A stretch of DNA of 64,000 nt, from assembly GCA_910578245.1 (NCBI GenBank), contig CAJTPC010000001.1, positions 27,603 through 91,602 on the forward strand. The letters run 5' to 3'. The notes below the pieces were generated by a model, which did not search any database, had not been told where the DNA came from, and was given only the letters and a program-made list of their open reading frames with translations. A program made the translations under genes and the position numbers. The DNA is from an uncultured Christensenella sp. (GTDB lineage: Bacteria > Bacillota > Clostridia > Christensenellales > UBA3700). The number at the start of each line of letters is the position of its first letter. Position 1 is the stretch's first letter. Of this stretch, positions 369-62,941 are shown in pieces.

Positions 369-375
369 AATATTT

Positions 376-1509: not shown

Positions 1510-3106
1510 TATCGTTATTCTCCTCAAATGCATCCTCATTATCCCCAATGTTTTCTATCTTTCCATTTTCTTCATTGTCCTGAGTATCCCCGTTGACGAG
1601 TTGAGGTATTTTCTTCCCCCTTTTTAGCATACCACAAAACTTTTTAATAATGAATATGATTTCGCGCATATTAATAATAAATATCGATAATATTACGACA
1701 GTTGCGTAAGCCCATTTATATTTAACGTTAAGCGTATAGACGACAGCCAATACCATTAAAAGCATATATTGCGCGATAAACTTAAACCAATTAGTATTAA
1801 TCTTAACAAGCTTTTTGGACAATAATACTCTGGTAACAAATATAACCGTATAACTCAACCAAAAAGCTATTATGGACACATATACAACGCTGTTTAATCC
1901 GACAAACTTCGCGAAAATCGGCATAAAAATGCAACATACCGCAAGATTTACGCCTGCGCCTATAAATGTCGAATACATGCTGTATTTCGTCTTGTAATAT
2001 GCTCCGAAAAATGCTCCGAAAAAGGCAGAGAAACAACCGGATACAGCTCCCATAATTAAAATAGGAGAGAATACCCAAGCTTCATAAAAATTATTCTTTA
2101 ATAAAAATTTAGAAATGTACGGAACAATTAAAATAATTACTCCTGTAGCTAGAAAGATAATGGGAGTATAGTACTTAAAAACAGTACTGTAGAATTCATT
2201 CCTATCGCTACTCTCGCTTTCTTGCGCAGAAGATAATGACCATGCTTGCAAAAAGATGCTACTAACTACATTGATAAGAGCAGGCAACTTACTTGCCGCT
2301 GTAACCAGTCCTGCGACCGTCCAAGCCTGTTCATACAATTCTTCATTTTTGCCTAAACCAGCGATTGTTATTACTGATAAGTATACCATTAGATAACGTC
2401 CTGAAGTCTGCACTATCCACCAACTTATGCTATTGGAAACGTTGGGAATAGAATACTTTAACATCTCTTTCAAAGTTATCTTGTTGAAATCATGAATTTT
2501 AATATATTTCCAAGGATTAACGGTAATAGTAAGTAAGATAATTACTACTATAGGCGCCACAATGAGTGATAAAAGATACCCATTTATCCCAAGACGCAAC
2601 GGCACTATAGCTATATATGCGGTCAGCAACATCGCTACAGCCTCTATAATACTAGAAACAGCGTAATTAACAGTCTTGCCAATACCTCTTGTAAACTCGC
2701 ACAACAACCCCTTAAAACCTCTCAAAACAAATAGAGGAATTAGTAACAAAAGATATGTTCCGCTATAGATTGAGCCTGTATAATTAGCAATAAAATAAAA
2801 TGCGACATCAAATATGGCAAAAACTAAAGATCCTATAAAAACTATAGTAAACGAATTGGTGATTATCTCGTTAGGCGAATACTTCTTGTCTACCGAAAAT
2901 CTAAACAACGCTTCGGCTAACCCCAAAGTCAATAGTGGGATAAACAAGTCGGAGATAGTAGTCACTACGTTGTCCGTAATACCATACTGACTCTCAAGTA
3001 AATACTTCGTTAACATCGGAAGTATAAAAAACTGAGCCGCCTTACCCGTAAGGTTGCCTATAGCAAAGATTATTGAATTTGAAATCAGTCTTTTATACTT
3101 GTTCAT
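1502..3106 (-). CDS. wzx: polysaccharide flippase (Wzx, MOP/PST family) with an acidic C-terminal tail
   Basis: 534 aa with many predicted TM segments. The N-terminus MNKYKRLISNSIIFAIGNL... is typical of PST flippases. The gene sits inside a glycan operon. Confidence 0.75.
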   Translation of the reverse strand: MNKYKRLISNSIIFAIGNLTGKAAQFFILPMLTKYLLESQYGITDNVVTTISDLFIPLLTLGLAEALFRFSVDKKYSPNEIITNSFTIVFIGSLVFAIFDVAFYFIANYTGSIYSGTYLLLLIPLFVLRGFKGLLCEFTRGIGKTVNYAVSSIIEAVAMLLTAYIAIVPLRLGINGYLLSLIVAPIVVIILLTITVNPWKYIKIHDFNKITLKEMLKYSIPNVSNSISWWIVQTSGRYLMVYLSVITIAGLGKNEELYEQAWTVAGLVTAASKLPALINVVSSIFLQAWSLSSAQESESSDRNEFYSTVFKYYTPIIFLATGVIILIVPYISKFLLKNNFYEAWVFSPILIMGAVSGCFSAFFGAFFGAYYKTKYSMYSTFIGAGVNLAVCCIFMPIFAKFVGLNSVVYVSIIAFWLSYTVIFVTRVLLSKKLVKINTNWFKFIAQYMLLMVLAVVYTLNVKYKWAYATVVILSIFIINMREIIFIIKKFCGMLKRGKKIPQLVNGDTQDNEENGKIENIGDNEDAFEENNDNE

Positions 3107-3165
3107 ATTTACAATATAATTATTATACCCCCAGAACTAAGCGTTTTGCAACACAATATCTAAAT

Positions 3166-4305
3166 TTATGTTTCCCAAAAGAATGAATAGGGATATATTA
3201 TGTTCCACTCCGGTCTGAAAATTTGACCTAATATTAAATAAACAGTCATTATTAATATTATCAAGAAAGTAAGTGCTTTCTTAGCATTTTGATCATATTT
3301 TCTTAGAGCATTTGGCATTAAAATTATGTAAAACGTACTAAAGTACGATATTATTCTATCAATCAAACTGATTCTATAACCAAATATTACTCCTATCGCA
3401 GGTATAAGAGCCAACCATGCAATAAGATTTCTTTGACAGCTATTATTTAATTTTGAGATACCAATGACCCGATTATCTTTTATTTTGCTAATTACCATGA
3501 ATATTAAAACAAAAAATATAACGTTACGCATTACTAAATAAGTTATAGATAAGCTTCCTGTACCAGAGTACATTTGCGAATCAAAATAATGAGAATATTG
3601 TGGCGCAATAATTTCTACGAATCTAAAGAATCCATTTGTAGCCGTAAGTATAATGACTAATACAGCCAAAATTATTGCTAATATTTTGCTAAATCTAATA
3701 TATGGCAATATAGGAATAATTATAAATAATATAGCGCTTTTGTGAAATAAAAATGCAATTATAATCCAAAAGTATGAGGTAATTATTTTTTTATTTATTA
3801 GCCTATCGTATGCTATCAATAAAAATGCAATCGCCAATTCTTGCCTAAGAATATTCAGAGTTGAGCCAAAACACATTAAATAAAAAAACAACAAAGATAT
3901 GGAATAGTTTTTACTGTGTTTGCGCAAAAACCAAATATAAACAGGATAATATATCATAGCTGAGCAGATAATTATACCTTGAGGATTTGTTGTAAATTTT
4001 CCAACAAGTTTATTCAAAAAAATATATCCTAATTCAAATCTAGTTATATTGGCATAATCAGGATTGGATATTACATTAATAAATATTTTATGATATTCGT
4101 TAGTATCGCTTCCAACGCTGATTCCTCTAAACATAGCAAGAACCATCATGACAATCATTGCAATTATCATGTATGTTCCTTTATCCTTTTTTTCTGCCTG
4201 CGTTGTAGTTAAATTGGCGTTATATCTTAGAATCCTTTTAGACAATTTTGCTTGAAGATAAGCAAATATAAATACAAACGCAGTTATTAATAGTAAGTCT
4301 CTCAT
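3166..4305 (-). CDS. EpsG/Wzy-like polysaccharide polymerase (polytopic membrane protein)
   Basis: 379 aa and highly hydrophobic. Size and position between the flippase and the GTs fit the EpsG family. There is a 4-nt start/stop overlap with the upstream GT1. Confidence 0.6.
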   Translation of the reverse strand: MRDLLLITAFVFIFAYLQAKLSKRILRYNANLTTTQAEKKDKGTYMIIAMIVMMVLAMFRGISVGSDTNEYHKIFINVISNPDYANITRFELGYIFLNKLVGKFTTNPQGIIICSAMIYYPVYIWFLRKHSKNYSISLLFFYLMCFGSTLNILRQELAIAFLLIAYDRLINKKIITSYFWIIIAFLFHKSAILFIIIPILPYIRFSKILAIILAVLVIILTATNGFFRFVEIIAPQYSHYFDSQMYSGTGSLSITYLVMRNVIFFVLIFMVISKIKDNRVIGISKLNNSCQRNLIAWLALIPAIGVIFGYRISLIDRIISYFSTFYIILMPNALRKYDQNAKKALTFLIILIMTVYLILGQIFRPEWNIIYPYSFFWET

Positions 4306-5423
4306 ATATACAAATTTATTATCTCATTATAGATATCTTCCAAATTTTTGGCTTGCCTTACTATGTCAAAGCCTTTATCTTTCAATATATCAATATATCT
4401 CTTTCTATCTTCTATTATAGCAATATTACGTATAACTTCAGCCCATTGTTCTGAATTCGCCTCATTAGGTAGAGAATGTAAATTATCCAAAATCATAACT
4501 TCTTCAGGCATATTTTCAAAGCATAATGTTACTAAACCATTAGCTTGAGCTTCTAGGAGCGCTATGCCAAATCCCTCAAACAAAGAAGGGAAAACAAAAC
4601 AATCCATTGCGCTTAGTAATTCGCCTATATCTTTTCTGCTGTCAGTAAAAACTACGTAGTCCTCTAATCCTGAAGATTTCACATATTCCAACGTACCTGA
4701 CTCTTCTTTACCTGGACCTACGAGCAAAAGACGAGCATCCTGTCTACTCTTAAGTAATTCCTTTAATACCTCAACGGCAAATTTTTGGTTTTTTTGTGGA
4801 CACAACCTGCCGACATTGCCAAGCACGAACTTATCTTGCAATCCAAATTCTTCCCTTATATTTTTACGACCTTCACTTGTAAAAGTATAGTTATCTAGAT
4901 TGATTGCATTATAAATTGTCTTATATTTTTTATCGTTGATAATCTTTTTGCCAAATGCGTTTTGTCCAGCTTCTTTTGAGCAAGCGAAACAATAATCGCT
5001 ATATTTTGCAAGTCCTCGTACCAATATTCTATTTCTAATAGCTCTAATTGGCTTTTCTGAAAGTTTAGTATTATGACTGTGCGAAATACACTTTACGTTG
5101 CCATATTTTCTTGCATACTTAAATACCATTTTAGCAACTAGAATCTCATGACAATGTATAATATCATATTCCTTTCCATGTTCCTTGAAAAACTCTTTAA
5201 GATCTTTTAATGTTTTGAAGTAAGTTCTTATACCAGGAACCGTAAACTTATAGACCACACCGCCTAATTCGTTTATTTCATTATTAAAACTATTGCTTGG
5301 TAACGAGAGTACCAAAAAATCAAATTGAACCTTATCTTTATTAATATTACGATAATAATTCATCACTACGTTAGAAACACCGCTACTTGTACCTGTAGAC
5401 CACAATACTTGCAATACTTTCAT
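4302..5423 (-). CDS. glycosyltransferase family 1 (GT4-type)
   Basis: C-terminal EX7E-like motif FPSLFEGFGIALLEAQANGL, 373 aa. Confidence 0.85.
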   Translation of the reverse strand: MKVLQVLWSTGTSSGVSNVVMNYYRNINKDKVQFDFLVLSLPSNSFNNEINELGGVVYKFTVPGIRTYFKTLKDLKEFFKEHGKEYDIIHCHEILVAKMVFKYARKYGNVKCISHSHNTKLSEKPIRAIRNRILVRGLAKYSDYCFACSKEAGQNAFGKKIINDKKYKTIYNAINLDNYTFTSEGRKNIREEFGLQDKFVLGNVGRLCPQKNQKFAVEVLKELLKSRQDARLLLVGPGKEESGTLEYVKSSGLEDYVVFTDSRKDIGELLSAMDCFVFPSLFEGFGIALLEAQANGLVTLCFENMPEEVMILDNLHSLPNEANSEQWAEVIRNIAIIEDRKRYIDILKDKGFDIVRQAKNLEDIYNEIINLYI

Positions 5424-6073
5424 TGCCTCTCCTTTGATTTTTTATGCGACATATACATACGCATAAAGTCCAAATCGTGATGATAAGTCAATTTGTAATT
5501 ATCCGGGAAATCAAAATGCTTATAAAGCGTAGTTCCCTCCGGTAATTGTTGATAGGCCTCTACCAATGAAGAAAGCGGATCAAAATTCTTATATATCAAG
5601 TCAAACCTAAACGCTTCTGGAGATTGAAGAATATAATATCTGCTTCTATCGCACTCCAAAAAGTCAAGACAACCCAAAGAATCAACTATTCGTTGACAAG
5701 TAGCCACGACTTGGTATTCGTCTAGCTTGTCCATATATAAATCAATTAACTCTTTTGTAACGAAAGGACGCATAGCGTCAAATACCATAAGTTTATCGCA
5801 ATTATACTTGGATTTTATATACTCCATACCGTTTTTGAAAGAGATATTACGCTCGCTTCCGCCCACGCAAACGTCTACGTCAAATCTTTCCTTAAACCAA
5901 TCTAGATATTCTTCCGCGCACACAACGACAGTTCTGTCAACCTTGCTTGATTGAAGCGTAGCTTCGACCACGTACTCAACCACGGTCTTTCCCAATAGGT
6001 CTTGATATTGTTTGGGAGTCGGAGCGCCAAACCTTTGGCCTACTCCGCCAGATAAAATCATAGCTATATTCAT
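5420..6073 (-). CDS. IspD/TarI-family nucleotidyltransferase (CDP-alditol or CDP-sugar synthase)
   Basis: N-terminus MNIAMILSGGVGQRFG..PKQY matches the IspD/TarI P-loop-like motif. 217 aa. Confidence 0.75.
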   Translation of the reverse strand: MNIAMILSGGVGQRFGAPTPKQYQDLLGKTVVEYVVEATLQSSKVDRTVVVCAEEYLDWFKERFDVDVCVGGSERNISFKNGMEYIKSKYNCDKLMVFDAMRPFVTKELIDLYMDKLDEYQVVATCQRIVDSLGCLDFLECDRSRYYILQSPEAFRFDLIYKNFDPLSSLVEAYQQLPEGTTLYKHFDFPDNYKLTYHHDLDFMRMYMSHKKSKERQ

Positions 6074-6909
6074 TCTTGTCCCTCGCTTGTCTTGTCATAT
6101 AATTCATACCCGTGAGTTGCCACTCTTTTTTCTTCAGGCGGTAATTGCATATAATCGCCGTAAAACTGCGTAAGATACTTTTCCCAGCCTATAGGAGCTG
6201 GCAATACTAAGTTCTCAAATTGCATATATTCGCATTCACCGTACGTTTCGACTCTATTAACAATTCTATTACTTCCCACCTGGTCAATATATTCTCCAAC
6301 GTATTCGCATTGATCATAGGGCAAACTTCTTGCTAATTTATAAATTTTCTTATGCAATCTTTTTACGCCATATATTTTAACGAAAAATCTTAATAGTTCT
6401 ATCGCCAAATTTTTAACGAACGAACAGTCCTTTCTCCAAGGCTCTACCAATAATGAATAATTCATTACTTGATACTTATGCATTTTCTTCATTTGTTTCT
6501 CTGCTGTAGCCATATCATTGCCAAGTCCGTCAATAGGAAAAATATCAAGATATAATCCCATTTCAACTCCCGAATAAACGTCATCTTCTATAAGCAACGT
6601 ATCCATATCCACCAATTTCAAAAAAGTATAGACATACTTATGATTTAACTCATGAGAAAACAATTTGTATCTATTATTATCTTGCTTCTCCTTGAATATC
6701 TCTATTAGTTTGTCATAGTCAGGACGAGGCATATGCACGTCAATATCATCATCCCAAGGTATAAAACCTTTATGTCTAACCGCGCCAAGTAACGTCCCCC
6801 CTGACAAAAACATTTCCAAACCATTATCTTTACAAATATCGTTCAAATATTCTGCCATACTTAAAAGTCGTTGACGCATCTCATGAATTTCTATTTTTCT
6901 CATTTCCAT
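6070..6909 (-). CDS. LicD-family phosphotransferase
   Basis: LSGGTLLGAVRHKGFIPWDDDIDVHM is the LicD nucleotidyltransferase-fold signature. Confidence 0.85.
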   Translation of the reverse strand: MEMRKIEIHEMRQRLLSMAEYLNDICKDNGLEMFLSGGTLLGAVRHKGFIPWDDDIDVHMPRPDYDKLIEIFKEKQDNNRYKLFSHELNHKYVYTFLKLVDMDTLLIEDDVYSGVEMGLYLDIFPIDGLGNDMATAEKQMKKMHKYQVMNYSLLVEPWRKDCSFVKNLAIELLRFFVKIYGVKRLHKKIYKLARSLPYDQCEYVGEYIDQVGSNRIVNRVETYGECEYMQFENLVLPAPIGWEKYLTQFYGDYMQLPPEEKRVATHGYELYDKTSEGQE

Positions 6910-6921
6910 TTCCTTTTTTAT

Positions 6922-7776
6922 TTATTTTGCAAGTTCCGCTATTTTATCGTTCACTTCATTAAACTTTCTTGCAATCAATTTATCGCTTGACTTCAATTGC
7001 TCGTAATCTTCCAATGACAAGATTTTGGGATTCTTTTTCCCTTCACTCCAATCTACGTAAGTCAGATAATCCTTTATTTTATCTGCGTACTGCGAGTTGC
7101 CGATTATTGTTTGGAAAAAACTCTCGTCGGGACATATACAGTTCTTAAAATATTTCAAATACGGTTTACTGTCCACCTCATCTAAAACGTACGTCATAGT
7201 TTCATAGGTAATCGCAAACCACTGACTGCCGAAGAACCAATCCACTCCAAGTATATTTTTTCGCTTAAATAGACTGCGCGTCATTCCGCCTGTCATATAA
7301 TTGTATATCTTTCTTAATACTCTCATTATAAATTTAGGCGACGCACCCCATGTAGGATACCAAGTCTGATTTCTTTTAAGATATCGTCTATACCTCTCAT
7401 CCTCTTTCGGAATAATTTCAATGAAGTTATATCCAAAATTCTGCACAAAGAAATTTTGTATAAACTCGTTAGACTTTATTGGATAGTCCTGTCCGCTTAT
7501 AAACCAAACGTAATCATACTCGCGCTTGCTCTCTCTTACATTCTTCAATAGTTCAAGCATAGATTCGACTAATGATATATGCCCCCACTTAGCGTCTATT
7601 CTATTGGAAGTAAAATAAACATTGGTTTTTTTATTTATATCGCCTATGATATTACTCTTTTTATCTATATGCAAATAAAAATCAACGCTAGGGTAATCCA
7701 AAGCATCAATCATTTCATTAATCGCCTTGGGATTTTTATGAGCCAATATTAAATATGCTATACGAACTTCACTCAT
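6922..7776 (-). CDS. GT14-like (core-2/I-branching type) glycosyltransferase
   Basis: N-terminus IAYLILAHKNP, a WGHISLV motif and a size of 284 aa resemble the Branch/GT14 family. Confidence 0.65.
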   Translation of the reverse strand: MSEVRIAYLILAHKNPKAINEMIDALDYPSVDFYLHIDKKSNIIGDINKKTNVYFTSNRIDAKWGHISLVESMLELLKNVRESKREYDYVWFISGQDYPIKSNEFIQNFFVQNFGYNFIEIIPKEDERYRRYLKRNQTWYPTWGASPKFIMRVLRKIYNYMTGGMTRSLFKRKNILGVDWFFGSQWFAITYETMTYVLDEVDSKPYLKYFKNCICPDESFFQTIIGNSQYADKIKDYLTYVDWSEGKKNPKILSLEDYEQLKSSDKLIARKFNEVNDKIAELAK

Positions 7777-7796
7777 TTACTTACTCTTTTCTCTAA

Positions 7797-8636
7797 TTAA
7801 TTTTCTTTCGCAGGTTTTTGTCGCATCAACTTTATGAAAACGAATTTTCTCAAACAATTGGGCATCAAAACTTGTATGACGTATCTCATAAAACAACACT
7901 TTCTATACTCGCCTTTAGTTATTATCTTGTTGTTAAGCATAAACTTAAACAAGTCCCTTTCGCTTATATAGTATTTTTTACCACCGCGCCTACTAAAAGT
8001 AGCTTCGTTGATTCTTGCGTATACAAGATTCTCTTTGATATTTGCGAATTTGCATCCTGCCAAATACATTCTTGCCCAAAGATAACTGTCCTCATTATAA
8101 AACCAATGCAAGTATCCGCCGGCTTTCTCCACTTCGCTTTTCTTGAACATAACCGTCATATGATTGAAAGGACATCTTTTTTTGAGATACTCGCAAATAT
8201 CTTTATGCTCGGCGGGCACGTCTCTCACACTGACAACGTTATCTATATCACCAATAAATTCTGCTATATCGCTTCCCACAATTGAAATATCGGGATTTTT
8301 TTCCATTAAAGCAAGTTGTTTCTCAAACCTGTCTTTAACAGCTATATCATCGCTATCCATTCTTGCAATAAGTTCGTATCTGCAATATTGCATTCCTTCT
8401 TTAAGCGCATTGCCCAAACCCACGTTTTGCTCCAATGGATATAATTCAATCAAATCACTATACTCTTCCCTCAGTCCGTTTAACGCATGCATACTGTCTT
8501 CGGGTATTGGACCGTCGACAACTATTACCACTTGAGACGGTCTTACAGTTTGCTCAATTATACTCTTTACCGCCGTTATTACGTTTTCCGCAACGTCATT
8601 CTTATAGACAGACATCAATACGCTGAATTCTTGCAT
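7797..8636 (-). CDS. glycosyltransferase family 2
   Basis: FSVLMSVYKND...VVIVVDGP and a DSDD motif (ARMDSDDIA) are typical of GT2. Confidence 0.85.
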   Translation of the reverse strand: MQEFSVLMSVYKNDVAENVITAVKSIIEQTVRPSQVVIVVDGPIPEDSMHALNGLREEYSDLIELYPLEQNVGLGNALKEGMQYCRYELIARMDSDDIAVKDRFEKQLALMEKNPDISIVGSDIAEFIGDIDNVVSVRDVPAEHKDICEYLKKRCPFNHMTVMFKKSEVEKAGGYLHWFYNEDSYLWARMYLAGCKFANIKENLVYARINEATFSRRGGKKYYISERDLFKFMLNNKIITKGEYRKCCFMRYVIQVLMPNCLRKFVFIKLMRQKPAKEN

Positions 8637-10560: not shown

Positions 10561-12141
10561 TTATTTATTTTCCGCAGTTTGGATTTTTGCAAGCTGATTG
10601 AGTTCATAATCGGGATTAACTCGCCACAAATTCCATTTAAGAGCATATGAAAATGCGCGGAGCGGATAGGTCTTTCCTCTATAAATTTTGGGCGGACATA
10701 TCTTGCAACCGATTTTATCAAAGAATGGACGCAGGTTTTCCATACGTTTTTCAAATTCCAAGTAATTGCGGTCCTCTATCTTAGTCCAACACACTTCGCT
10801 GAAAGCAACCAAACGCGCATATGTAAGCATATCGAGTTTTGTTTCGTCCCGTATATACTCTGCCCACTGCGGTATTTCCATACCCAAAACGTTGCTCTCG
10901 TCTTTAACGCCTAGAGTTTTTGCAGAAAAACCGTAGGTCTTCTTAAGCGGTCTGACGTTGTAGGGATGGTCCATATATACGTAGTTTGCCATAGATAAAA
11001 TGCACTTGCCGCCTTTAGCCATCCAATCAAATTCGTTTTTGTTGCCACTGCTGTGCTTTATCCACCATTGCGCCACTACGTCGTTGTCCATAATATCTTT
11101 TGCGTCCAGTATCTCATTCCAACCTATCAATCTCTTGCCCTTTGCGCGCAAATACTTTGCTATCTCGTTGTTGAAATACCCCTGCAAAGCATTCTCGTCT
11201 TTCAAACCCAACAGTTTGATTTTTTCCTGACAGCAAGGACATTTTTTCCATCGGGTTTTGGGAGCTTCATCTCCGCCTATATGAAAAAATTTGCCCGTAA
11301 ATATGCGACATAACTCATCGATTACGTCTTTGGCAAATTCGTATACGTCGTCTTTCCCGCAACAGCAAATATTGTCCATAATCCCCCATCTGTCACTGAC
11401 GTCCGTTTGCTCGCCAGTACACGATAAATTGGGATAGCAAGCTATCGCCGACACCGTATGCCCCGGCATATCGATTTCGGGTATAACCTCGATGTGCCTA
11501 TCTTTGGCGTAAGCCACGATTTGCTTCATATCGTCTTGAGTATAGTATAAATTGCGACCGTATTCATTTTCGTCATATCCCCAATTACCCGACCCCATAA
11601 ATGCCTTGGGGGAAAGCGGAGTACGCTTGCGTATAGCGCCCTTTTGCGTCAATAGCGGATACTTCTTTATCTCAGCTCTCCAGCCTTGGTCGTCCGTCAA
11701 ATGCCAGTGAAATTTGTTCATCTTGAGATGCGCCATTACGTCTAGTATTTGCTTAATCTTTTCCACTCTCCAAAAGTGACGCGCGCAATCCAAGGAAAAG
11801 CCTCTGTATTGATAATTCGGTCTATCTTCCGCGTATACTCTTTGCAAACCCTCTTTCGTAAAAATCTGTTGCATAGTCATAAACGCGTAGAAGGCTCCTT
11901 GCTCCGTCTTTGCGCTCACAGTAACTTTGTCTTGCGCGCAATCTATGCGGTACGCCTCGTCTTGCAAATTCCTATCGATTTCAAAAAATACTCGGCAGTT
12001 TTCTCCCCCGGGAATATCTGCCAAAAACTCCTTTAACAACGCTTTGGTATTGACAAAAGCGCCCGATATGACGCTGTTTTTACCAAGCGCGATACTTCCT
12101 TCTTTTTCTTCGACTATCGTCGGCAAAGGTATGATATTCAT
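10561..12141 (-). CDS. beta-N-acetylhexosaminidase (GH20)
   Basis: HWHLTDDQGWR and FHIGGDE catalytic-region motifs. 526 aa with no signal peptide. Confidence 0.9.
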   Translation of the reverse strand: MNIIPLPTIVEEKEGSIALGKNSVISGAFVNTKALLKEFLADIPGGENCRVFFEIDRNLQDEAYRIDCAQDKVTVSAKTEQGAFYAFMTMQQIFTKEGLQRVYAEDRPNYQYRGFSLDCARHFWRVEKIKQILDVMAHLKMNKFHWHLTDDQGWRAEIKKYPLLTQKGAIRKRTPLSPKAFMGSGNWGYDENEYGRNLYYTQDDMKQIVAYAKDRHIEVIPEIDMPGHTVSAIACYPNLSCTGEQTDVSDRWGIMDNICCCGKDDVYEFAKDVIDELCRIFTGKFFHIGGDEAPKTRWKKCPCCQEKIKLLGLKDENALQGYFNNEIAKYLRAKGKRLIGWNEILDAKDIMDNDVVAQWWIKHSSGNKNEFDWMAKGGKCILSMANYVYMDHPYNVRPLKKTYGFSAKTLGVKDESNVLGMEIPQWAEYIRDETKLDMLTYARLVAFSEVCWTKIEDRNYLEFEKRMENLRPFFDKIGCKICPPKIYRGKTYPLRAFSYALKWNLWRVNPDYELNQLAKIQTAENK

Positions 12142-34649: not shown

Positions 34650-35339
34650 TTAGTAACTATTCTTTTCTTCGGCAAACTTTATCTTGCCCTTTACGACCTT
34701 GCCGACGGCAAAAGTAAGAGGCATATAAAATGCCGACATTCTTCCCCACTTGATACTCTCTATCTTGCCGTAAGAATTGATACATACCCCGCTGTCTGTA
34801 AACTTGCAAAGCACGTATCTTCCGGTCGCGCGCGCAAGAGTTCTTGCGCAAGAAATTCTCTCAACGTCAGAGCAAGAAGAGTTCAGACAAAAGATATATC
34901 TACACCCTTTTAACGCGCCTTGCCAAAGTTGTGGATAACAAATGTCGCTGTCCACGAATACGCATACTTTGCCCCTTGAAGTCATATAAGAGCGCACGGT
35001 AGACGAGCCTAAATAACCCTTCGGCGGATTAATCTCATCGCTCACTCCCATGATATGACCGTTGTCAATGACGCCTACGCTATTGAAAATCTTCTCGCCT
35101 ATCTTTGCGCGCATAGCAACGACAATAATGACGCCTTTGTCTTTACTGTACTCTACTATACCCCTTAAGATACTCGTCCTACCGCCCAGTTCGGCAGGCA
35201 TATCCACAAGTCCTACAACTTCTCTGGTGAAAAGTAAAATATCATTGGGAGAAATCATCGCGCCGTATTCTTCAACTACTCTATCAAATTCAATGTCGGA
35301 AAAACAAAAAATCATACTGCATTTTATGACAACGCGCAA
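34650..35339 (-). CDS. hypothetical protein, possibly with a carbon-nitrogen-hydrolase-like fold
   Basis: 229-aa ORF. Only weak resemblance (CVFVDSDICYPQLWQ against the nitrilase-superfamily ICYD..FPE cysteine motif). Confidence 0.4.
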   Translation of the reverse strand: MRVVIKCSMIFCFSDIEFDRVVEEYGAMISPNDILLFTREVVGLVDMPAELGGRTSILRGIVEYSKDKGVIIVVAMRAKIGEKIFNSVGVIDNGHIMGVSDEINPPKGYLGSSTVRSYMTSRGKVCVFVDSDICYPQLWQGALKGCRYIFCLNSSCSDVERISCARTLARATGRYVLCKFTDSGVCINSYGKIESIKWGRMSAFYMPLTFAVGKVVKGKIKFAEEKNSY

Positions 35340-37639: not shown

Positions 37640-38923
37640 TTATTTATCCAGACTGTCCAACGCTTGTTTTACGTCTGCTATGAGATCGTCGATATTCTCT
37701 ATTCCCACGGAAAGACGTATGAGCTCAGGCGATACCCCTGCATTGGCAAGTTCTTTGTCGTTCATTTGTCGGTGCGTTGCGCTTGCCGGATGCAGACAGC
37801 AACTGCGCGCGTCTGCGACGTGCGTTTCGATAGCAATTACTTTGAGATGCTTCATCACTTCTTCTGCGGACTTTCTACCGCCCTTGACGCCAAAGCTCAA
37901 AACTCCGCAAGAGCCGTTGGGCAAATACTTCTTGGCAAGTTCGTATCCTTTATCGCCCTTGAGATTTGGGTAAGTTACCCACGCTACTCTCTTGTGGCTT
38001 TGCAAAAATTCAGCCATTTTCAAAGCATTGGAACAATGCCTTTCCATTCTCACCGCAAGGCTCTCCAGTCCGAGGTTGAGTATGTATGCGTTTTGCGGAG
38101 ATTGAATCGAGCCTAAATCTCTCATTAGTTGAGCGGTAGCCTTGGTAATAAAAGCTCCGCCAAGTCCAAATCTCTCAGTATAAATTACGCCATGATAGCT
38201 CTCATCCGGAGTGCAAAGACCTGCAAATTTGTCAGGATACTTTGTCCAATCAAACTTACCGCTGTCAATGATTGCTCCGCCTACGCCTGCTCCGTGTCCG
38301 TCCATATACTTGGTCGTGGAATGAGTAACTATGTCGGCGCCCCATTCAAAAGGTCTGCAATTTATGGGCGTAGCAAAAGTATTATCCACAATAAGCGGTA
38401 CGCCGTGCGCATGCGCTACCTTAGCAAATCTCTCTATATCGAATACGACGATTGCAGGATTGGCAATAGTTTCACCGAATACCGCCTTTGTATTAGGTCT
38501 GAATGCCTTTTCAAGTTCTTCATCGGAGCAGTCGGGCTTGACGAAAGTAAAGTCGACGCCCATTCTCTTCATAGTGACGGCAAATAGATTGTACGTTCCG
38601 CCGTAAATCGTAGACGATGCTACAATGTGATCCCCGCAACCTGCAATATTGAATATCGCATAGAAATTGGCGGCTTGTCCGGAAGACGTCAACATACCTG
38701 CGCTTCCGCCCTCAAGCTGGCAAATCTTTTGAGCAACGTAATCATTGGTCGGATTTTGAAGACGGGTATAGAAGTACCCGCTCTCCTCAAGGTCGAACAG
38801 CTTTGCCATCGCCTCGCTTGTATCATACTTAAAAGTCGTACTTTGAATTATAGGCACCTGTCTTGGCTCGCCATTGCCGGGTTTGTATCCGCCTTGTATG
38901 CATATCGTTTCTATTTTGCTCAT
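37640..38923 (-). CDS. metY: O-acetylhomoserine sulfhydrylase (PLP-dependent)
   Basis: IQGGY.PGNGEPR..PI.QSTTF and HSTTKYMDGHG (PLP lysine). ATG at 38923 has a GGAGAAG RBS. The track start at 38971 is an extension. Confidence 0.9.
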   Translation of the reverse strand: MSKIETICIQGGYKPGNGEPRQVPIIQSTTFKYDTSEAMAKLFDLEESGYFYTRLQNPTNDYVAQKICQLEGGSAGMLTSSGQAANFYAIFNIAGCGDHIVASSTIYGGTYNLFAVTMKRMGVDFTFVKPDCSDEELEKAFRPNTKAVFGETIANPAIVVFDIERFAKVAHAHGVPLIVDNTFATPINCRPFEWGADIVTHSTTKYMDGHGAGVGGAIIDSGKFDWTKYPDKFAGLCTPDESYHGVIYTERFGLGGAFITKATAQLMRDLGSIQSPQNAYILNLGLESLAVRMERHCSNALKMAEFLQSHKRVAWVTYPNLKGDKGYELAKKYLPNGSCGVLSFGVKGGRKSAEEVMKHLKVIAIETHVADARSCCLHPASATHRQMNDKELANAGVSPELIRLSVGIENIDDLIADVKQALDSLDK

Positions 38924-44687: not shown

Positions 44688-46577
44688 TTAATCCATATTA
44701 AATTTTAATAAATTTATCATTTCCTCTTGGTGTTTTTTATAACCGTCATTTCGCCAGATATCGTCACTCGTCGTCCAGGCGCTCATCAATCTCAACTTCA
44801 AGCTCCCATTTTTGGCGGCATCGTTAGTCTTCTTTGAAACGGGACTTGCATTGGAAAACCTAGAGTTAATCTCGCGAGAAACTATACAAAGATTGCCAAA
44901 GCTATCTCGCAAGTATTTCCCGTTTTCTTTATCTTCCCAAGGGGCGCAACTGCCACCTGAGGGGTGTTGGGGGTACCAATGCTCTACGGAATTTCTAAAC
45001 TCAAATACGAAATTACCAAAATCTAAACTTTTATATTTTTCATTATTATTGCGCTCTTTCCAAAGCAGATAGTCAAGATAGTTGAATATTATATGCGGAG
45101 TACCTACACCTTGCATATAATCCTTTTCTTGGACAAACTTCTTTACTTCTTCTTTTGCAATACTCTCAATCGAGTCCTTTGCGTTGCTTAGCTTACTTCC
45201 GTCACTACATAGACACTTCAGATATTGCGTTATCCAGTGCATGACTTTAGCCGACGTATACGACACACGCATACAAGACTGCAACTTAAGATTATCGTCA
45301 AATGATAGCCCGTCGAAAGTCGTATCATTGTAATAAGCGCTTTTCTTTGACTTAGAGTTCGAAACGCATAGCTCCTTTAGACTCCACTTGCCGTCTTTAT
45401 CGTCGGATAGATACTCACGCTTTATTACGTACTTGTCAAAGAGAAAACGACACTTCAGCAGACACTCGATAAATTGGAGAGAAAAACTTTCTTTATCCTC
45501 ATTATATTTATTCTTTATTACGTCGTCAAAGGTCTTTACGAGTTTCTTATCGTCTAGCGATAGCTCCTTGTTATCGTCTACAAGTACCTTTAACGTGTGC
45601 AGTAAGAAGTACGGAAAGGATATGATACTTTCAAATCTTACGTTCTTTCCTTCCTTGACAACTCCCTCGTATTTTTGCTCCAAACTTTGGCGCTTAGATA
45701 TTTCAATGGCGCTTAGTTTCGTCGTACTCTCGTCTGTCGTGTCCGACTGCTCGTCTATCATGTCCGACTGCTCGTCTGTCGGGTTTTTCCCGAGAAGCTC
45801 ACACAACTTATTAAAGTCGGGACTGCTATTCCACTCCTCGCCGAATAAAGCTTCTCTCTGCCTTGGCGAGAAACGCATCTGTATGTAGCAATTCATTTCT
45901 CTGCAAGCGTCCCAGACAATTGCAAACGCCTTTTGCTTAATCTTATCCCCTTTGAGAGGCTCCATAAGTTTTGCCTTGAGTATATCGTGTTGTTCAAGCT
46001 GTTCGCCTCGCACGTTCATAATCTCGAAATAGCGATTGAGGTCGGTATGCTTTGGCACCTCGATACGGAACAATTTGACCTTATTTAATTTCTCTCTAAA
46101 GGTATCCTTATCTATTACGTTTCCCTTTTCTTTAACGCTAAATTTAGCGATAATATGTTTCTTGCCTTCTCGCAACGACTCCTCTATTTTATCCTCGTCG
46201 TCCGTATTGACGAATAAGTTATCGCCAGTTTTATCTAATAAATAATTGAGAGTATAATTGGACCTTTCTCTACACTCAAAACTCAACCTGTCTTTGCCCC
46301 AACTATATCCTAGATAATTTAGCAAAAGATAGAGCGCTGTCAAACGCTGTTGACCGTCGATTACTTCGAATTTCCCGTCTTTATTGACGTGTACTATTAA
46401 CGACCCGAGATAATAATGGTCTGCGTCAAAATCGTAGATATCGTCAATCAACTGGCATATCTCATCGTTTCCCCAAGCAAAAGCGCGTTGGTACAGCGGA
46501 ATAATATATTGGTCGCTACCTTGCGAAAAAATCGTATTTTCGCCGTCTACGATATTAAGTACTTTAATTTCGCTCAT
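44688..46577 (-). CDS. GmrSD-family protein: N-terminal DUF262 (ParB/Srx-like NTPase) plus C-terminal DUF1524 His-Me-finger nuclease
   Basis: N-terminal IIPLYQRAFAWG and IDGQQRLTALYLL (DUF262). C-terminal FEFRNSVEHWYPQHP...GNLCIVSREINSRFSNASPVSK (DUF1524-type H...N...N). 629 aa. Confidence 0.8.
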   Translation of the reverse strand: MSEIKVLNIVDGENTIFSQGSDQYIIPLYQRAFAWGNDEICQLIDDIYDFDADHYYLGSLIVHVNKDGKFEVIDGQQRLTALYLLLNYLGYSWGKDRLSFECRERSNYTLNYLLDKTGDNLFVNTDDEDKIEESLREGKKHIIAKFSVKEKGNVIDKDTFREKLNKVKLFRIEVPKHTDLNRYFEIMNVRGEQLEQHDILKAKLMEPLKGDKIKQKAFAIVWDACREMNCYIQMRFSPRQREALFGEEWNSSPDFNKLCELLGKNPTDEQSDMIDEQSDTTDESTTKLSAIEISKRQSLEQKYEGVVKEGKNVRFESIISFPYFLLHTLKVLVDDNKELSLDDKKLVKTFDDVIKNKYNEDKESFSLQFIECLLKCRFLFDKYVIKREYLSDDKDGKWSLKELCVSNSKSKKSAYYNDTTFDGLSFDDNLKLQSCMRVSYTSAKVMHWITQYLKCLCSDGSKLSNAKDSIESIAKEEVKKFVQEKDYMQGVGTPHIIFNYLDYLLWKERNNNEKYKSLDFGNFVFEFRNSVEHWYPQHPSGGSCAPWEDKENGKYLRDSFGNLCIVSREINSRFSNASPVSKKTNDAAKNGSLKLRLMSAWTTSDDIWRNDGYKKHQEEMINLLKFNMD

Positions 46578-58357: not shown

Positions 58358-58400
58358 CCAGTCAATTGTTTTTCAATAAATATTGTGGGAAAATTTTGTT

Positions 58401-58850
58401 ATGGAAAAAGATTTCACTTCAAATATTAAAATATTAAGACAAGAATATAACGTGTCACAACCGCAACTTGCTAAAGAAACAGGTTTGAAAAAAAGCGCAA
58501 TTGGGCATTGGGAATTAGGCAACCGCACTCCAAGCGCAACAGCAGTAATTATTTTATCAAGATATTTTCAAGTAACTACAGACTATTTATTAAAAGTTAG
58601 CAACGACAATAACCTAATACATCGCGGAGATGATTTTAACGTTGACTTAACAACGTTTAACAAAAGACTTAAAGCGTTAAGACTTAAATGCAATAAATCT
58701 CAAAAAGACTTAGCAATGGAAACTAATTTATCTCAACCGTCTATCAACTTTTGGGAAAGAGGCAAATGCTTGCCAAACGCTAACGCAATCATAACGCTTG
58801 CCAATTATTTTGGCGTGACCACTGACTATTTATTGGGCGAAAGCGATTAG
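58401..58850 (+). CDS. tandem dual-HTH (2x XRE/HTH_3) DNA-binding protein, copy 1
   Basis: Two HTH_3 units (NIKILRQEYNVSQPQLAKETGLKKSAIGHWELGNRTPS..., LKALRLKCNKSQKDLAMETNLSQPSINFWERGKCLPN...). 149 aa. Confidence 0.8.
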   Translation: MEKDFTSNIKILRQEYNVSQPQLAKETGLKKSAIGHWELGNRTPSATAVIILSRYFQVTTDYLLKVSNDNNLIHRGDDFNVDLTTFNKRLKALRLKCNKSQKDLAMETNLSQPSINFWERGKCLPNANAIITLANYFGVTTDYLLGESD

Positions 58851-58871
58851 TGAATTTAAGAATATTAAATC

Positions 58872-59321
58872 ATGGAACAAAAATTTGTATCAAATATTAA
58901 ACTTTTACGAAAAGAATTTAACGTATCGCAACCGCAACTTGCTAAAGAAACAAGTTTAGCGAATAGCGAAATTAGTTATTGGGAAAACGGAGAACGAACT
59001 CCAAATGCAAGAGTTATAATAATATTATCAAGATATTTTCAAGTAACTACGGATTATTTGTTAAAAGTAAATGAAGATAATACTTCAGTTTATCGTTCAG
59101 ATGATTACTATGCTGACATGACGCTATTAAACAAACGATTGAAAGATTTGAGAATAAAGAACAAGTTATCCCAAAGCGAACTTGCAAAGAACGTCAACAT
59201 TTCTCAACCTGCTATAAACTATTGGGAACTTGGCAAAAGAACTCCTAACGCTAATGCAATCATAACGCTTGCCAATTATTTTGGCGTGACTACTGACTAT
59301 CTTTTGGGCGAAAGTGATTAA
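58872..59321 (+). CDS. tandem dual-HTH (2x XRE/HTH_3) DNA-binding protein, copy 2 (paralog)
   Basis: Same length (149 aa) and architecture as copy 1. The last 24 residues (PNANAIITLANYFGVTTDYLLGESD) are identical to copy 1. Confidence 0.8.
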   Translation: MEQKFVSNIKLLRKEFNVSQPQLAKETSLANSEISYWENGERTPNARVIIILSRYFQVTTDYLLKVNEDNTSVYRSDDYYADMTLLNKRLKDLRIKNKLSQSELAKNVNISQPAINYWELGKRTPNANAIITLANYFGVTTDYLLGESD

Positions 59322-59697: not shown

Positions 59698-60573
59698 TTA
59701 CTCATACTTTTTTAATATAGCTTTTAATGAACTTTTTGTTGCATCTCTGTTTATTCTTCTGAGAAGATAAAGACTGCGACGTCCGTAGATATGATTAATA
59801 CCCTCATTACAAGTCAAAGTCATTATCACGCCCTTTTGCTTGAGCACGCTTTCGCTAATCTTGGTGTACTTGCCGTAGGGATAAGCATAGATATTCGACG
59901 ATACTCCCAACTCACCTAATTTATCTACAAGTTTTTGCGTATCGTCTGCGAACACTTGCTCGTATAGTTCGTCGCTCTCGCTTTTAAGTTGAGCTACGCC
60001 AAGTCTTGGGCGCGTGTTGTGCATAGAATAAGAATGAAGACCTATTTCTACGTTTTTGTTTTGAGCAACCTCGGCTATATCGTCCCAACCGAAGTACGTG
60101 AAATCGCCGCCGCCCTTTCCGCCTTTTTTATCATACGCAGTGTAATCTCCCACGACGGAAAAAAGTCCGCTATAGCCAAACTCTTCAAGTAGCGGTAGCG
60201 CGTAAGTTATATTATTCAAATATCCGTCGTCAAAAGTCAAAATCACAGCTTTGTCGGGAAGCGATCTGCCGTTGTCAACATACTCGATAAGGCTCTTGCA
60301 ACTTATTACGTTGTAACCCTTTTCTTTGAGATATTGAAAATCACTGCGCAGACTATTTTGATTGATACAATACACGCTTTGTTTTTTGCCTTCTGCCAAA
60401 GTGTTGTGATACATCAAGATAGTCAAATCGCCAAGGCTGGTCTGAGAACTGCCCTGCTCGCTCATATTCGTAACTTGCGAATTATCGCCGTTTACTTGAC
60501 AAAAGCCACAGCTAAAAGCCGTAGCCGTCAACACCAAACATATAATACACAAACTCAAAGAAAGTCTTTTCAT
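59698..60573 (-). CDS. polysaccharide deacetylase (CE4) family protein, secreted/lipoprotein-like
   Basis: LTFDDGY motif, HSYSMH histidine motif, and an N-terminal signal sequence with a cysteine (TATAFSCGFC). Confidence 0.8.
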   Translation of the reverse strand: MKRLSLSLCIICLVLTATAFSCGFCQVNGDNSQVTNMSEQGSSQTSLGDLTILMYHNTLAEGKKQSVYCINQNSLRSDFQYLKEKGYNVISCKSLIEYVDNGRSLPDKAVILTFDDGYLNNITYALPLLEEFGYSGLFSVVGDYTAYDKKGGKGGGDFTYFGWDDIAEVAQNKNVEIGLHSYSMHNTRPRLGVAQLKSESDELYEQVFADDTQKLVDKLGELGVSSNIYAYPYGKYTKISESVLKQKGVIMTLTCNEGINHIYGRRSLYLLRRINRDATKSSLKAILKKYE

Positions 60574-60640
60574 AAGTATCTCCAAACAATTCCTTTAACG
60601 CCGAATCTTTTCTTATTTATATTGTGAGTATGCTGAGAAT

Positions 60641-61333
60641 TTATACGCTCAAGCTCTCGTTCAAGACGTCGGCAATATTCTTGCAAAGGTCTTTGCAGTA
60701 GTCTTGAGATAGCAAGAGTTTTTCGTCTTCCGGATTGGATATAAAACCGCATTCGATAATTATAGACGGAACTTTTACGCACTTGGTAATAAAAAGATCT
60801 CCGGCAATAGCCTCGTAATCGTCGCGTCCGCTGTATTTTGCATTAATTTTTTGATTAATGCGCTCTTGCATGCACATGGCAAAGTCCTTGCCAATGCCCG
60901 TATCGTCGTAAAATACCTGCGCGCCTCTGCGCGACGGATCTGAAAACTTATTGACGTGCAGACTTATTACGGCAATAGGCGAAGCCTTGACTATAATATC
61001 CTTACGCGCCTGCATATCCAATCGCTTTATGTTGTTGAGCGCGTCTTGCGTAGTTCTCGTCATAACGACGCCAAAACCTCTGCTATCGAGTTCTTTTTGA
61101 AGAATACCTGCCATTTTGAGATTTATGTCGCTTTCCTTAACGCCTTGACTGCCGACAACTCCTCCGTCAATACCTCCGTGACCTGCGTCAATTACGACTG
61201 TGTACTCGCTTATTCTTGCTCCCGTATGGGCATTATTAACCGATATACACATCCCTCCCACGCTACACGCAAGAACGATAATAATACAAATTACGACTGC
61301 TACAAACAATTTCTTTTTTAACGTTATGAACAT
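60641..61333 (-). CDS. cwlD: N-acetylmuramoyl-L-alanine amidase (Amidase_3), CwlD-like
   Basis: N-terminal TM segment, VVIDAGHGGIDGG, ISLHVN, ECGFISN. 230 aa, as for germination-specific CwlD. Confidence 0.75.
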   Translation of the reverse strand: MFITLKKKLFVAVVICIIIVLACSVGGMCISVNNAHTGARISEYTVVIDAGHGGIDGGVVGSQGVKESDINLKMAGILQKELDSRGFGVVMTRTTQDALNNIKRLDMQARKDIIVKASPIAVISLHVNKFSDPSRRGAQVFYDDTGIGKDFAMCMQERINQKINAKYSGRDDYEAIAGDLFITKCVKVPSIIIECGFISNPEDEKLLLSQDYCKDLCKNIADVLNESLSV

Positions 61334-61477
61334 ACAATCTCCTTTTAGGATATTTGACTAAACGAGCGCGCAAGAATCGATAATAAGATTGCCTTGCGAA
61401 CTTGCGAAAAGTCTTTCAAATAATAATATTAAAAAATCAAGATTTCTATGCCAAAATAGTAGTTTTTCTATATGTAA

Positions 61478-61770
61478 TTTTGCGGAAAACGATGCTTTGA
61501 TTTTGCACAATTTAGGAAAGAATATGGAAATTTTCAAAAATGCCGTTTTTGCGCCTTAAAATAGGAATTTTCAAAAATTTTTGCCCAAAAACCCCACTTA
61601 TCCACATACTTATCCACAAAAACAAGTGTTCGTGTGGATAACTCACGCAATTTCCCACTCTATTTCAATATTATGTATATGTGTCGAATTTTGGAGATTT
61701 TCGTCATTTTTTGTCTGATAAATACAAGATTTTTTTCCTAACAATTCCTTATATGGACTTTTGCGGAAAA
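61478..61770. repeat. iteron-like short repeats flanking the DnaA boxes
   Basis: The exact 12-mer TTTTGCGGAAAA occurs at 61478-61489 and 61759-61770. TTTTGC(A/G/C) cores occur at 61501, 61547 and 61579. GGAA(A)TTTTCAAAAAT occurs at 61526-61541 and 61564-61578. Confidence 0.55.
61598..61641. promoter_or_regulatory. cluster of three perfect-consensus DnaA boxes
   Basis: TTATCCACA at 61598-61606 and 61610-61618, and the inverted box TGTGGATAA at 61633-61641, inside a 627-bp AT-rich non-coding region. Confidence 0.7.
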
Positions 61771-61906
61771 AACCTATTTTTCGACTGTAGTTTTAAGGAA
61801 AAAGCAAAACGAATTCTTATAAATTTACTTTGATTTTTTATAAAAATTCCTTGGCCATTTTTAATTAAATTTTGACGATTTGTCCAAAAAATTGTACTTC
61901 TTTATC

Positions 61907-61935
61907 TTGAAAATCAATGAGCATCTTGATATAAT
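61907..61935 (+). promoter_or_regulatory. sigma-A-type promoter of the second WYL regulator
   Basis: TTGAAA-17 nt-TATAAT, 25 nt upstream of the ATG at 61961. Confidence 0.6.
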
Positions 61936-61960
61936 ATAGAAAACACTTTGGAAGGTCAAT

Positions 61961-62941
61961 ATGGCAGGAGCAAAGCAGAAGATTAAAATATTAAAATTAT
62001 ATGAAATTCTCTCAAGCGAGAGCGATGAAAATAATCCCCTATCCACCCAATATCTAATCGAAAGACTAAAAGCCGAGGGTATAAGCGTAGAGCGCAAGAC
62101 GCTATATGACGATATAGCCTTGCTCAACGAATGCGGTTATGAAATTATGCAGGTACGCAAAAAACAAAATATGTATTACGTAAGCGACAGAAGTTTTGAC
62201 GTTGCTGAAATACGTATACTCATTGACGCAGTTGAAGCATCGAGTTTTATCACGCCGGAAAAGACAAACAGGCTTGTAAACAAAATCGCGTCCCTTGCCG
62301 GCTCGCATAAAGGCAAAGTCATAAAAAACAACATCGTAGTTTTCGACACTACCAAGCGCGACAACGAGCAAATATATTACAACGTCTTCAACATCAACGA
62401 AGCAATTATAGCTAAGAAAAAGATAAGTTTCAAATACTTCAAGTATAACGCTAAGGGCGAAAAGACGGTAATGCGCAATGACAAGCCCTATACCGTCAAT
62501 CCAATCGCTACTATGGTAAGCAACGACAATTATTATCTCATTTGTTCAAGCGACAAATACAAAGACGTCGCGCACTATCGCATAGACAGAATGGAGAACG
62601 TCAAAATTATGAGGGAGGATTTCACTCTGCCAGACGAGCTGAAGAACTTTGACCCCAGACGCAATAAAAAACAGCTTTTTTCAATGTATCTCGGTCAGAT
62701 GCAAAACGTCACCTTTGAAATTACTCCCGATATAGTCGAAGTTATTTTTGATAAATTCGGCAAGAATACCAAGCTCTACCCTTACGGCGAAAAATACCGC
62801 TTTACGGCGGAAATACAGATAAGCGATTCCTTTTTCGGTTGGTGTATGGGACTTGGCGCGAATATAGAAATATTATCTCCGAGAGAAGTCAAAGCGCAGT
62901 ATCTGCAAAAACTTCACGCCGTGATATGCGCGTATAAATAA
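61961..62941 (+). CDS. WYL-domain transcriptional regulator (paralog of 47883-48863)
   Basis: Same length (326 aa) and layout: wHTH (KILKLYEILSSESDENNPLSTQYLIERL), WYL segment (KISFKYFKYN...VNPIATMVSNDNYYLICS...VAHYRIDRMENVKIM), C-terminal extension. Confidence 0.8.
   Translation: MAGAKQKIKILKLYEILSSESDENNPLSTQYLIERLKAEGISVERKTLYDDIALLNECGYEIMQVRKKQNMYYVSDRSFDVAEIRILIDAVEASSFITPEKTNRLVNKIASLAGSHKGKVIKNNIVVFDTTKRDNEQIYYNVFNINEAIIAKKKISFKYFKYNAKGEKTVMRNDKPYTVNPIATMVSNDNYYLICSSDKYKDVAHYRIDRMENVKIMREDFTLPDELKNFDPRRNKKQLFSMYLGQMQNVTFEITPDIVEVIFDKFGKNTKLYPYGEKYRFTAEIQISDSFFGWCMGLGANIEILSPREVKAQYLQKLHAVICAYK

Follow-up and report, generated by a model that had tools for sequence, protein, structure and literature searches.

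Three perfect DnaA boxes in a divergent intergenic region

The window analysed here, a stretch of 64,000 nucleotides of DNA from an uncultured Christensenella sp., contains between positions 61334 and 61960 a 627-bp spacer from which the neighbouring genes diverge, an amidase gene followed by a polysaccharide deacetylase gene on the minus strand and a gene for a WYL-domain transcription regulator on the plus strand. In this spacer a first-pass annotation of the DNA had pointed out three perfect DnaA boxes, TTATCCACA, and had considered for them a displaced chromosomal origin, a DnaA-box cluster for titration or regulation, and a relic origin of a plasmid or of an integrative and conjugative element (ICE). 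The divergent gene arrangement and the boxes themselves (three in 44 bp, 61598-61641, two direct and one inverted) were both borne out. The spacer has a G+C content (GC) of 0.29 versus 0.40 window-wide, and it is gene-free as announced. No conserved open reading frame (ORF) was found in it among relatives and no small ORF with a ribosome-binding site, Rfam at gathering thresholds gave no match there or in the rest of the window, and RNAalifold run on 61660-61775 (7 species) yielded -0.36 kcal/mol and no conserved RNA fold. A scan of the window for tRNA found nothing.

The grouping of the boxes is the striking feature. The whole window contains five perfect boxes where 0.54 ± 0.77 are expected, a number reached in none of 100 shuffles, and three of these five fall within the single 44-bp stretch. 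Boxes with one mismatch are not enriched in the window (19 versus 15.6 expected), so that the cluster itself is the signal and not a general excess of boxes. Counted over the 627 bp, three perfect boxes and four sites with two mismatches make seven, compared with a mean of 2.6 ± 1.6 per 627 bp. The three-box cluster is thus not due to chance, and the locus displays the high local density of strong predicted boxes outside oriC that characterizes clusters of the Bacillus subtilis type. The inverted repeat formed by the second and third boxes (61610-61641) has 15-nt arms that are 87% complementary. The coordinates of these and other features are collected in Table 1. The two lone perfect boxes of the window, 34930-34938 (-) and 38382-38390 (+), lie within ORFs, for a 229-amino acid protein without Pfam match and a pyridoxal phosphate (PLP) enzyme of Cys/Met metabolism, and are probably chance or weak sites.

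Table 1. Features of the DnaA-box cluster and of its surroundings (positions in the window)
Feature	Position	Strand	Description
DnaA box 1	61598-61606	+	TTATCCACA, perfect consensus; leads the head-to-tail pair
DnaA box 2	61610-61618	+	TTATCCACA; 3 bp past box 1
DnaA box 3	61633-61641	-	Reads TGTGGATAA on the + strand; inverted, 14 bp from box 2
12-bp tandem unit ACTTATCCACA(T/A)	61596-61619		Includes box 2
32-bp near-palindrome TTATCCACAAAAACA-AG-TGTTCGTGTGGATAA	61610-61641		Box 2, conserved AACA..TGTT spacer and box 3
Second conserved block CAATATTATGTATATGTGTCGAA	61666-61688	+	Fixed 26-27 bp from box 3
Left 21-nt repeat TATATGTAATTTTGCGGAAAA	61469-61489	+	129 bp ahead of box 1 in closer relatives
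Right 21-nt repeat TATATGGACTTTTGCGGAAAA	61750-61770	+	152 bp past the start of box 1
Amidase_3 (CwlD-like) N-acetylmuramoyl-L-alanine amidase gene	60641-61333	-	Left neighbour
Polysaccharide deacetylase gene	59698-60585	-	PgaB-like rather than PdaA-like; beyond the amidase gene
WYL-domain transcription regulator gene	61961-62941	+	HTH_11 (weak, under the Pfam cut-off), WYL and WCX
Predicted WYL promoter	61907-61935	+	TTGAAA, 17 nt, TG-n-TATAAT; 11/12 matches, extended -10; consensus scan

Conservation of the cluster and exchange of its neighbours

The exact WYL protein of the window is encoded on many mouse-gut metagenome contigs and metagenome-assembled genomes ('Clostridia bacterium'), and the species representatives that carry the box element are labelled uncultured Christensenella sp., Christensenellaceae or Clostridia bacterium. 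Conservation was assessed in relatives fetched via the WYL protein alone (loci L008, L010, L016 and L012, with 84%, 78%, 69% and 62% protein identity). The three boxes, whose survival in related genomes the first-pass annotation had left to be checked, are perfect in all four. When L008, L010 and L012 are aligned to the window, 27 of 27 box positions are identical in each, while the remaining spacer retains 58%, 49% and 40% identity, respectively. The cluster is thus under strong purifying selection, and it is conserved in related genomes as B. subtilis-type clusters are. Within the species of the window itself the array is variable: the 12-bp unit ACTTATCCACAT is present in a third tandem copy in L005-L007 and strain L004 has a 1-nt deletion in box 1, so box number varies from 2 to 4 between strains.

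Species-representative genomes were also scanned for the pattern of two tandem boxes followed after 8-20 bp by an inverted box. At least 119 loci in many phyla carry this arrangement, which must be a common building block. Tandem boxes 3 bp apart with an inverted box 11-17 bp away occur in Deinococcus, Nocardiopsis, Ktedonobacter, Selenomonadales, Lachnospiraceae and others, and the Deinococcus sites among these loci show opposed boxes 5 bp apart, the DARS spacing. The family to which the element of the window belongs comprises about 20 loci among the matches listed, all with a 14-bp gap. Its spacer consensus is AAAAACA-nn-TGTTC, and most members possess a second block, TATGTATATGTGTCGAA, at a constant 26-27 bp.

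The element is found in four gene contexts. In the first, that of deacetylase-amidase, element and WYL gene, the order is as in the window. In the second, two unknown genes, for a 183-amino acid and a ~800-amino acid protein, precede element and WYL gene; in the third, a gene for a GH20 hexosaminidase stands between element and WYL gene, with deacetylase-amidase on the other side; in the fourth, the amidase gene is followed by an element with a fourth perfect box and by a YgjP-like gene. The two unknown genes occupy the amidase-deacetylase place in L012 (6252-9489, -) and L016 (6557-9566, -) and their products have no Pfam or NCBIfam match. The element is the constant part of all four contexts; either neighbour can be replaced and the cluster is independent of both.

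This independence bears on another explanation of the palindrome, as the operator of a different dimeric factor, for instance the adjacent WYL regulator, which would only mimic DnaA boxes. Box 2, spacer and box 3 do compose a near-palindrome in which the spacer is conserved too, and a WYL-type regulator gene adjoins in most contexts. Yet every copy matches the DnaA 9-mer consensus exactly, which holds also for the tandem box that the palindrome leaves out, for the third repeat unit of some strains and for the fourth box of deeper relatives. Moreover, L031, L059 and L065 carry the cluster without a WYL gene in the ~1.9-5.4 kb read to the right or elsewhere in the fetched piece, and WYL homologues of ~50% identity (L014, L015) have no boxes upstream. 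We therefore hold a foreign operator to be very unlikely. A search for literature on WYL together with the DnaA box found nothing.

A similarly built module of four boxes was encountered just past the parB stop, at the 3' end of rsmG-parA-parB (L019:581-699, L045:2713-2831 and L057:6295-6413). Its tandem pair is followed after 14 bp by an inverted box, and ~65 bp further on by another inverted one. The genomes are labelled Christensenella sp. or Clostridia bacterium, an NCBI label shared with genomes carrying the element. Since such a 4-box module adjoins rsmG-parA-parB, it points to a recurrent DnaA-binding module in those genomes; the parB-side copy might belong to the origin region of the clade or be a DnaA-box cluster close to the origin.

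The locus is not at the replication origin

Per-gene GC skew was regressed on the side of the element and on gene orientation, which splits the coding-strand effect (about +0.05 to +0.08) from the replication term. In the five species examined the replication term keeps its sign across the element, with left/right values of -0.065/-0.049 in L001, -0.089/-0.071 in L008, -0.052/-0.083 in L010, -0.074/-0.058 in L012 and -0.039/-0.068 in L016. Between left and right the term differs by -0.031 to +0.018 (each ± 0.02-0.04); an origin would demand a sign change of about +0.1 to +0.15. Along the 62 kb to the left the term is -0.089, -0.043 and -0.050, and the raw skew stays negative throughout the 10 kb to the right. 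The locus is thus not at a leading/lagging-strand switch, and since the orientation-corrected skew has no switch the cluster is a non-origin one.

The gene content leads to the same reading. Neither a search for DnaA motifs nor tblastn, run with six DnaA proteins, found dnaA in the window or in L001-L016, while the same tblastn finds it in 27 other loci sharing the box pattern. Over the 62 kb on the left and the 10 kb on the right there is no dnaA/dnaN signature. As for the unwinding module, we looked for a box pair with at least three DnaA-trios (3'-NAN-5') within 16 bp, followed by an AT-rich element. The locus does offer a co-oriented pair and, beside it, a hexamer rich in G+C (GTGGGG on the minus strand), but within 16 bp of a box neither strand has three or more consecutive NAN trios; the closest strict run is 136 bp off, at 61454-61462.

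An origin displaced from dnaA, where bound DnaA would open AT-rich DNA close by and bring in the helicase, was the first of the alternatives proposed for this DNA. It can call on the box pair 3 bp apart preceding the GTGGGG hexamer as in the B. subtilis unwinding module, on the AT-rich surroundings, on genes pointing away from the region in L010 and L012, and on the dnaA gene that is found within the 8-kb piece at 27 of the 119 loci of the pattern scan, among the matches listed, in other bacteria. Against it stand the unchanged skew sign in five species, the lack of a dnaA/dnaN signature and of a trio run over the distances given above, and the variation of box number between strains of one species. 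Furthermore, clostridial origin halves hold 5-19 boxes each (PMC7561715), compared with only three strong boxes here. A displaced origin thus appears highly improbable, and that proposal is not upheld. Replication runs through the cluster, which is probably a secondary DnaA-binding site and is not the chromosome origin. There is a lesson for annotation: since the arrangement occurs in at least 119 loci, of which 27 of the 119 listed have dnaA within 8 kb, perfect DnaA boxes and AT-rich DNA are insufficient to call an origin.

Flanking repeats and a second conserved block

Several repeats surround the boxes. The 12-mer TTTTGCGGAAAA reported on both sides of the cluster is indeed exact (61478-61489 and 61759-61770), and it lengthens to a 21-nt repeat, TATATG(T/G)AnTTTTGCGGAAAA. 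The two copies, at -129 and +152, are each ~140 bp from the cluster centre, and both hold on the minus strand TTTTCCGCA, a DnaA box with two mismatches; the homologous site of L133 reads TTTTCCACA. By homology the right repeat corresponds to the region in which, in deeper relatives, a consensus sigma-A promoter starts transcription of GH20, and the repeat keeps a fixed offset of +151 to +153 from box 1 in 8 species, even without GH20. Three further TTTTGC cores are present as described, at 61501, 61547 and 61579. The duplicated GGAATTTTCAAAAAT motif also exists, but as an imperfect repeat, the copy at 61521-61541 having an extra A relative to that at 61558-61578 (86% identity). The duplicated AATTTTCAAAAAT agrees with a CodY box at 13/15 positions; this reading was dropped, the motif not being conserved in L010 or L012.

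Repeated 12-mers around a box cluster are loosely reminiscent of iteron-type origins, and the first-pass annotation had accordingly listed the relic origin of an integrated plasmid or ICE, to which a prophage may be added. However, blastn gave no match in 72,556 plasmids or 50,697 phages, no replication (rep), integrase or transfer genes are nearby, and in all relatives, across several species, synteny places the locus amid housekeeping genes of the chromosome. The 'iterons' themselves find another explanation in homology, the right copy being the ancestral GH20 promoter start and both containing a weak DnaA box. A relic origin is exceedingly improbable and this proposal too falls.

The second conserved block (Table 1) is retained at 22 of 23 positions in L008, L010 and L012. 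It is the positional homologue of the fourth DnaA box, TGTGGATAA, of the deeper relatives L031, L059 and L065. Where the deepest relatives carry TGTGGATAA, the lineage of the window carries TGTCGAAAT, a reading kept in most other species with the second block and altered by single changes in some. In the window the block ends in TGTCGAA (61682-61688), the consensus of the Spo0A box. L016 and L097 have a tandem TGTCGAA-N3-TGTCGAA, and from 61682 to 61720 the TGTCGAA of the window is followed by the degenerate copies TGGAGAT, CGTCATT and TGTCTGA at a phase of ~10 bp. TGTCGAA as a Spo0A-type site remains a sequence resemblance. A search for spo0A in the fetched DNA returned receiver-domain matches only. 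Sporulation capacity is patchy across Christensenellales (PMC12536801).

These observations allow a more speculative proposal, which we judge unlikely. The element might be a standard DnaA module of Christensenella-like Clostridia, a Firmicute counterpart of datA/DARS that sets DnaA activity, with a tandem box pair, an inverted box after a gap of 14 bp and a further box ~40-65 bp on. Its sites would be of at least two kinds, one ahead of the amidase gene and one, in other genomes, at the 3' end of parB, and in the lineage of the window the fourth box would have turned into a Spo0A-type site. If this is true, DnaA, that is replication status, and a developmental response regulator would meet at genes of peptidoglycan remodelling.

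Flanking genes and promoters

All promoters mentioned in this work are consensus predictions. The cwlD label first given to the amidase gene stands in that CwlD is its best model, but not as a firm assignment, the score of 143 bits being under the cut-off of 221. No solved structure is related in sequence to the WYL protein. Where the GH20 or the YgjP-like gene adjoins the element, 7 of 8 loci have the amidase ATG a mere 62-72 bp from box 1 (it is further in L082), and because of this ancestral proximity the boxes would cover the amidase promoter or leader. A sigma-A or sporulation-sigma promoter of the amidase gene over the boxes or the second block was considered and rejected, no -35/-10 pair being conserved.

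On the right side, the element lies ~110-155 bp upstream of a consensus promoter in deeper relatives. In L107, L042 and L133, which belong to the GH20 group, this is TTGACA-17-TATAAT, followed by ATGGAC...GGAAAA at about +154 from box 1. The conserved 'ATGGAC' was rejected as an ORF start, stop codons following it in some species. In the window, 61750-61906 corresponds to the place of a lost GH20 hexosaminidase gene whose transcription-start sequence was kept at the same distance from the boxes. The GH20 gene present elsewhere in the window (10561-12141) was rejected as the relocated neighbour: it is 39% identical to that of L042 and is a paralogue. The suggestion that the WYL gene is under DnaA control finds weak support. 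Its promoter is ~270 bp off, GH20 intervenes in some relatives, others have the cluster without WYL in the ~1.9-5.4 kb read to its right, and the homologues of ~50% identity lack the boxes.

Further from the cluster, window positions 1-8000 have a GC of 0.32-0.35 versus 0.40 and a strongly negative skew, and encode polysaccharide-synthesis genes (a Polysacc_synt-family protein, EpsG, a GT4 glycosyltransferase and LicD); this segment looks like a variable surface-polysaccharide island. At 44688-46577 (-) there is a gene for a GmrSD-type restriction endonuclease (GmrSD_N and GmrSD_C), an enzyme of phage defence that targets modified DNA. Two tandem paralogous genes for double-HTH_3 (Xre/RstR-like) regulators of ~150 amino acids occupy 58383-59321 (+). 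Their order and the DNA to their left vary among L001-L007, and L005 has a haem/FeoB block there.

A probable secondary DnaA-binding site next to cell-wall genes

Our results point to a chromosomal non-origin DnaA-box cluster of the B. subtilis kind, placed in the divergent promoter region of a gut Clostridia bacterium, and we regard this as probably correct. Among the alternatives first put forward, it is the DnaA-box cluster for titration or regulation that the evidence supports. The cluster probably couples the flanking cell-wall and regulator genes to DnaA status, and it may titrate DnaA additionally or instead.

How could such a cluster work? DnaA would form a stable complex on the three consensus 9-mers, two of them head-to-tail 3 bp apart and the third facing the pair over the conserved 14-bp spacer. 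The weak TTTTCCGCA boxes in the flanking repeats and the former fourth box 27 bp downstream may enlarge this complex. It would most likely modulate leftward transcription of the amidase-deacetylase genes and may also act on the rightward unit, ancestrally GH20 and then the WYL gene. Cell-wall and regulator genes would thereby be tied to the availability of DnaA, and as a high-affinity set the cluster would also have to keep some DnaA off oriC. Both the binding of DnaA at the cluster and the identity of the responding gene we infer from the DNA.

Several features speak for local regulation: in the ancestral arrangement the cluster would cover the promoter or leader of the amidase gene, a strong rightward promoter stands at a constant distance from it, and a weak box is found at the start site of that promoter. 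Others favour titration or control of DnaA: the cluster outlasts the replacement of either neighbour, all three boxes are perfect and of predicted high affinity, and a similar four-box module sits past the parB stop without an identified adjacent gene start. The two roles are compatible, and inseparable by sequence alone.

Taken to its end, the second line of argument makes the element a site devoted to titrating DnaA or to regulating its cycle, comparable to datA, DARS or the B. subtilis clusters, without transcriptional role on its neighbours. The core of DARS likewise consists of three boxes, one inverted (PMC6868365), and the parB-side module recalls the conserved gcp-ydiF cluster of B. 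subtilis, located between convergent genes (PMC2533591). On the other hand, boxes I and II of DARS are opposed 5 bp apart, whereas here the opposed boxes are 14 bp apart and it is the co-oriented pair that has 3 bp. DARS and datA systems are not known from Firmicutes. Three boxes would titrate little DnaA, and the place over the ancestral amidase promoter or leader as well as the fixed promoter distance argue for a local role. We find a purely titrating site rather unlikely; it overlaps the reading as a B. subtilis-type cluster instead of excluding it.

Some points weigh against the interpretation as a non-origin regulatory cluster. A set of three boxes that all match the consensus perfectly is more usual at an anchor or titration site than at one that senses ATP-DnaA, and B. 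subtilis clusters are usually richer in boxes. In the lineage of the window ~265 bp separate the boxes from the amidase ATG and ~270 bp separate them from the WYL promoter, which is far for a simple operator, and in no lineage could a convincing amidase -35/-10 pair be positioned with respect to the boxes. The relatives obtained by the pattern scan were selected for perfect boxes and are unusable as evidence of conservation. Finally, the true origin was not located, and its exclusion here depends on anatomy and on skew measured locally, over 62 kb on the left side and 10 kb on the right.

Secondary DnaA-binding sites tie initiator levels to gene expression and restrain re-initiation, and maps of them exist for few model species. 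The strictly conserved module of three boxes described here from uncultured gut Clostridia offers a testable fragment of ~300 bp, next to peptidoglycan-remodelling genes and a WYL regulator.

Comparison with known systems

The closest parallel is provided by B. subtilis, where intergenic clusters of 4-10 boxes are stably bound by DnaA (PMC2533591). The non-origin clusters described by Ishikawa et al. 2007 are yqeG-sda, ywlC-ywlB, yydA-yycS, ywcI-vpr, gcp-ydiF and thdF-jag, and at such sites DnaA represses ywlC and yydA and activates sda (PMC2533591). The element described here shares with them intergenic consensus boxes away from oriC in a Firmicute and conservation among related species. The B. 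subtilis clusters stand in promoter regions of genes that DnaA represses or activates, and the present one too lies in a predicted promoter region. The two differ in box number, 4-10 against three here (2-4 between strains), all perfect. Other differences are the fixed tandem-plus-inverted architecture with its conserved palindromic spacer, and the neighbours, an amidase/deacetylase pair, GH20 and a WYL regulator.

DARS1 and DARS2 of Escherichia coli (PMC6868365) have in common with the element a three-box core with one opposed box and a non-coding location away from oriC. They are known only in gamma-proteobacteria. Their opposed boxes are 5 bp apart, as against 14 bp, so the element does not reproduce the DARS core, and no IHF or Fis region was recognised here. 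The basal unwinding system (BUS) of oriC (PMC8287927, PMC10721633) shares co-oriented boxes at most 3 bp apart followed by a short G+C-rich stretch. Because a DnaA-trio array, a skew switch and an adjacent dnaA are all lacking, the element is not an unwinding module of this type.

Two further likenesses concern the second block. Spo0A and DnaA boxes overlap in oriC of B. subtilis; here a perfect TGTCGAA occupies the place of the DnaA box of deeper relatives. Similarly, the tandem 0A boxes of abrB, with their 7+3+7 layout, have their equivalent in L016 and L097, where the same layout is found as a likeness of letters only.

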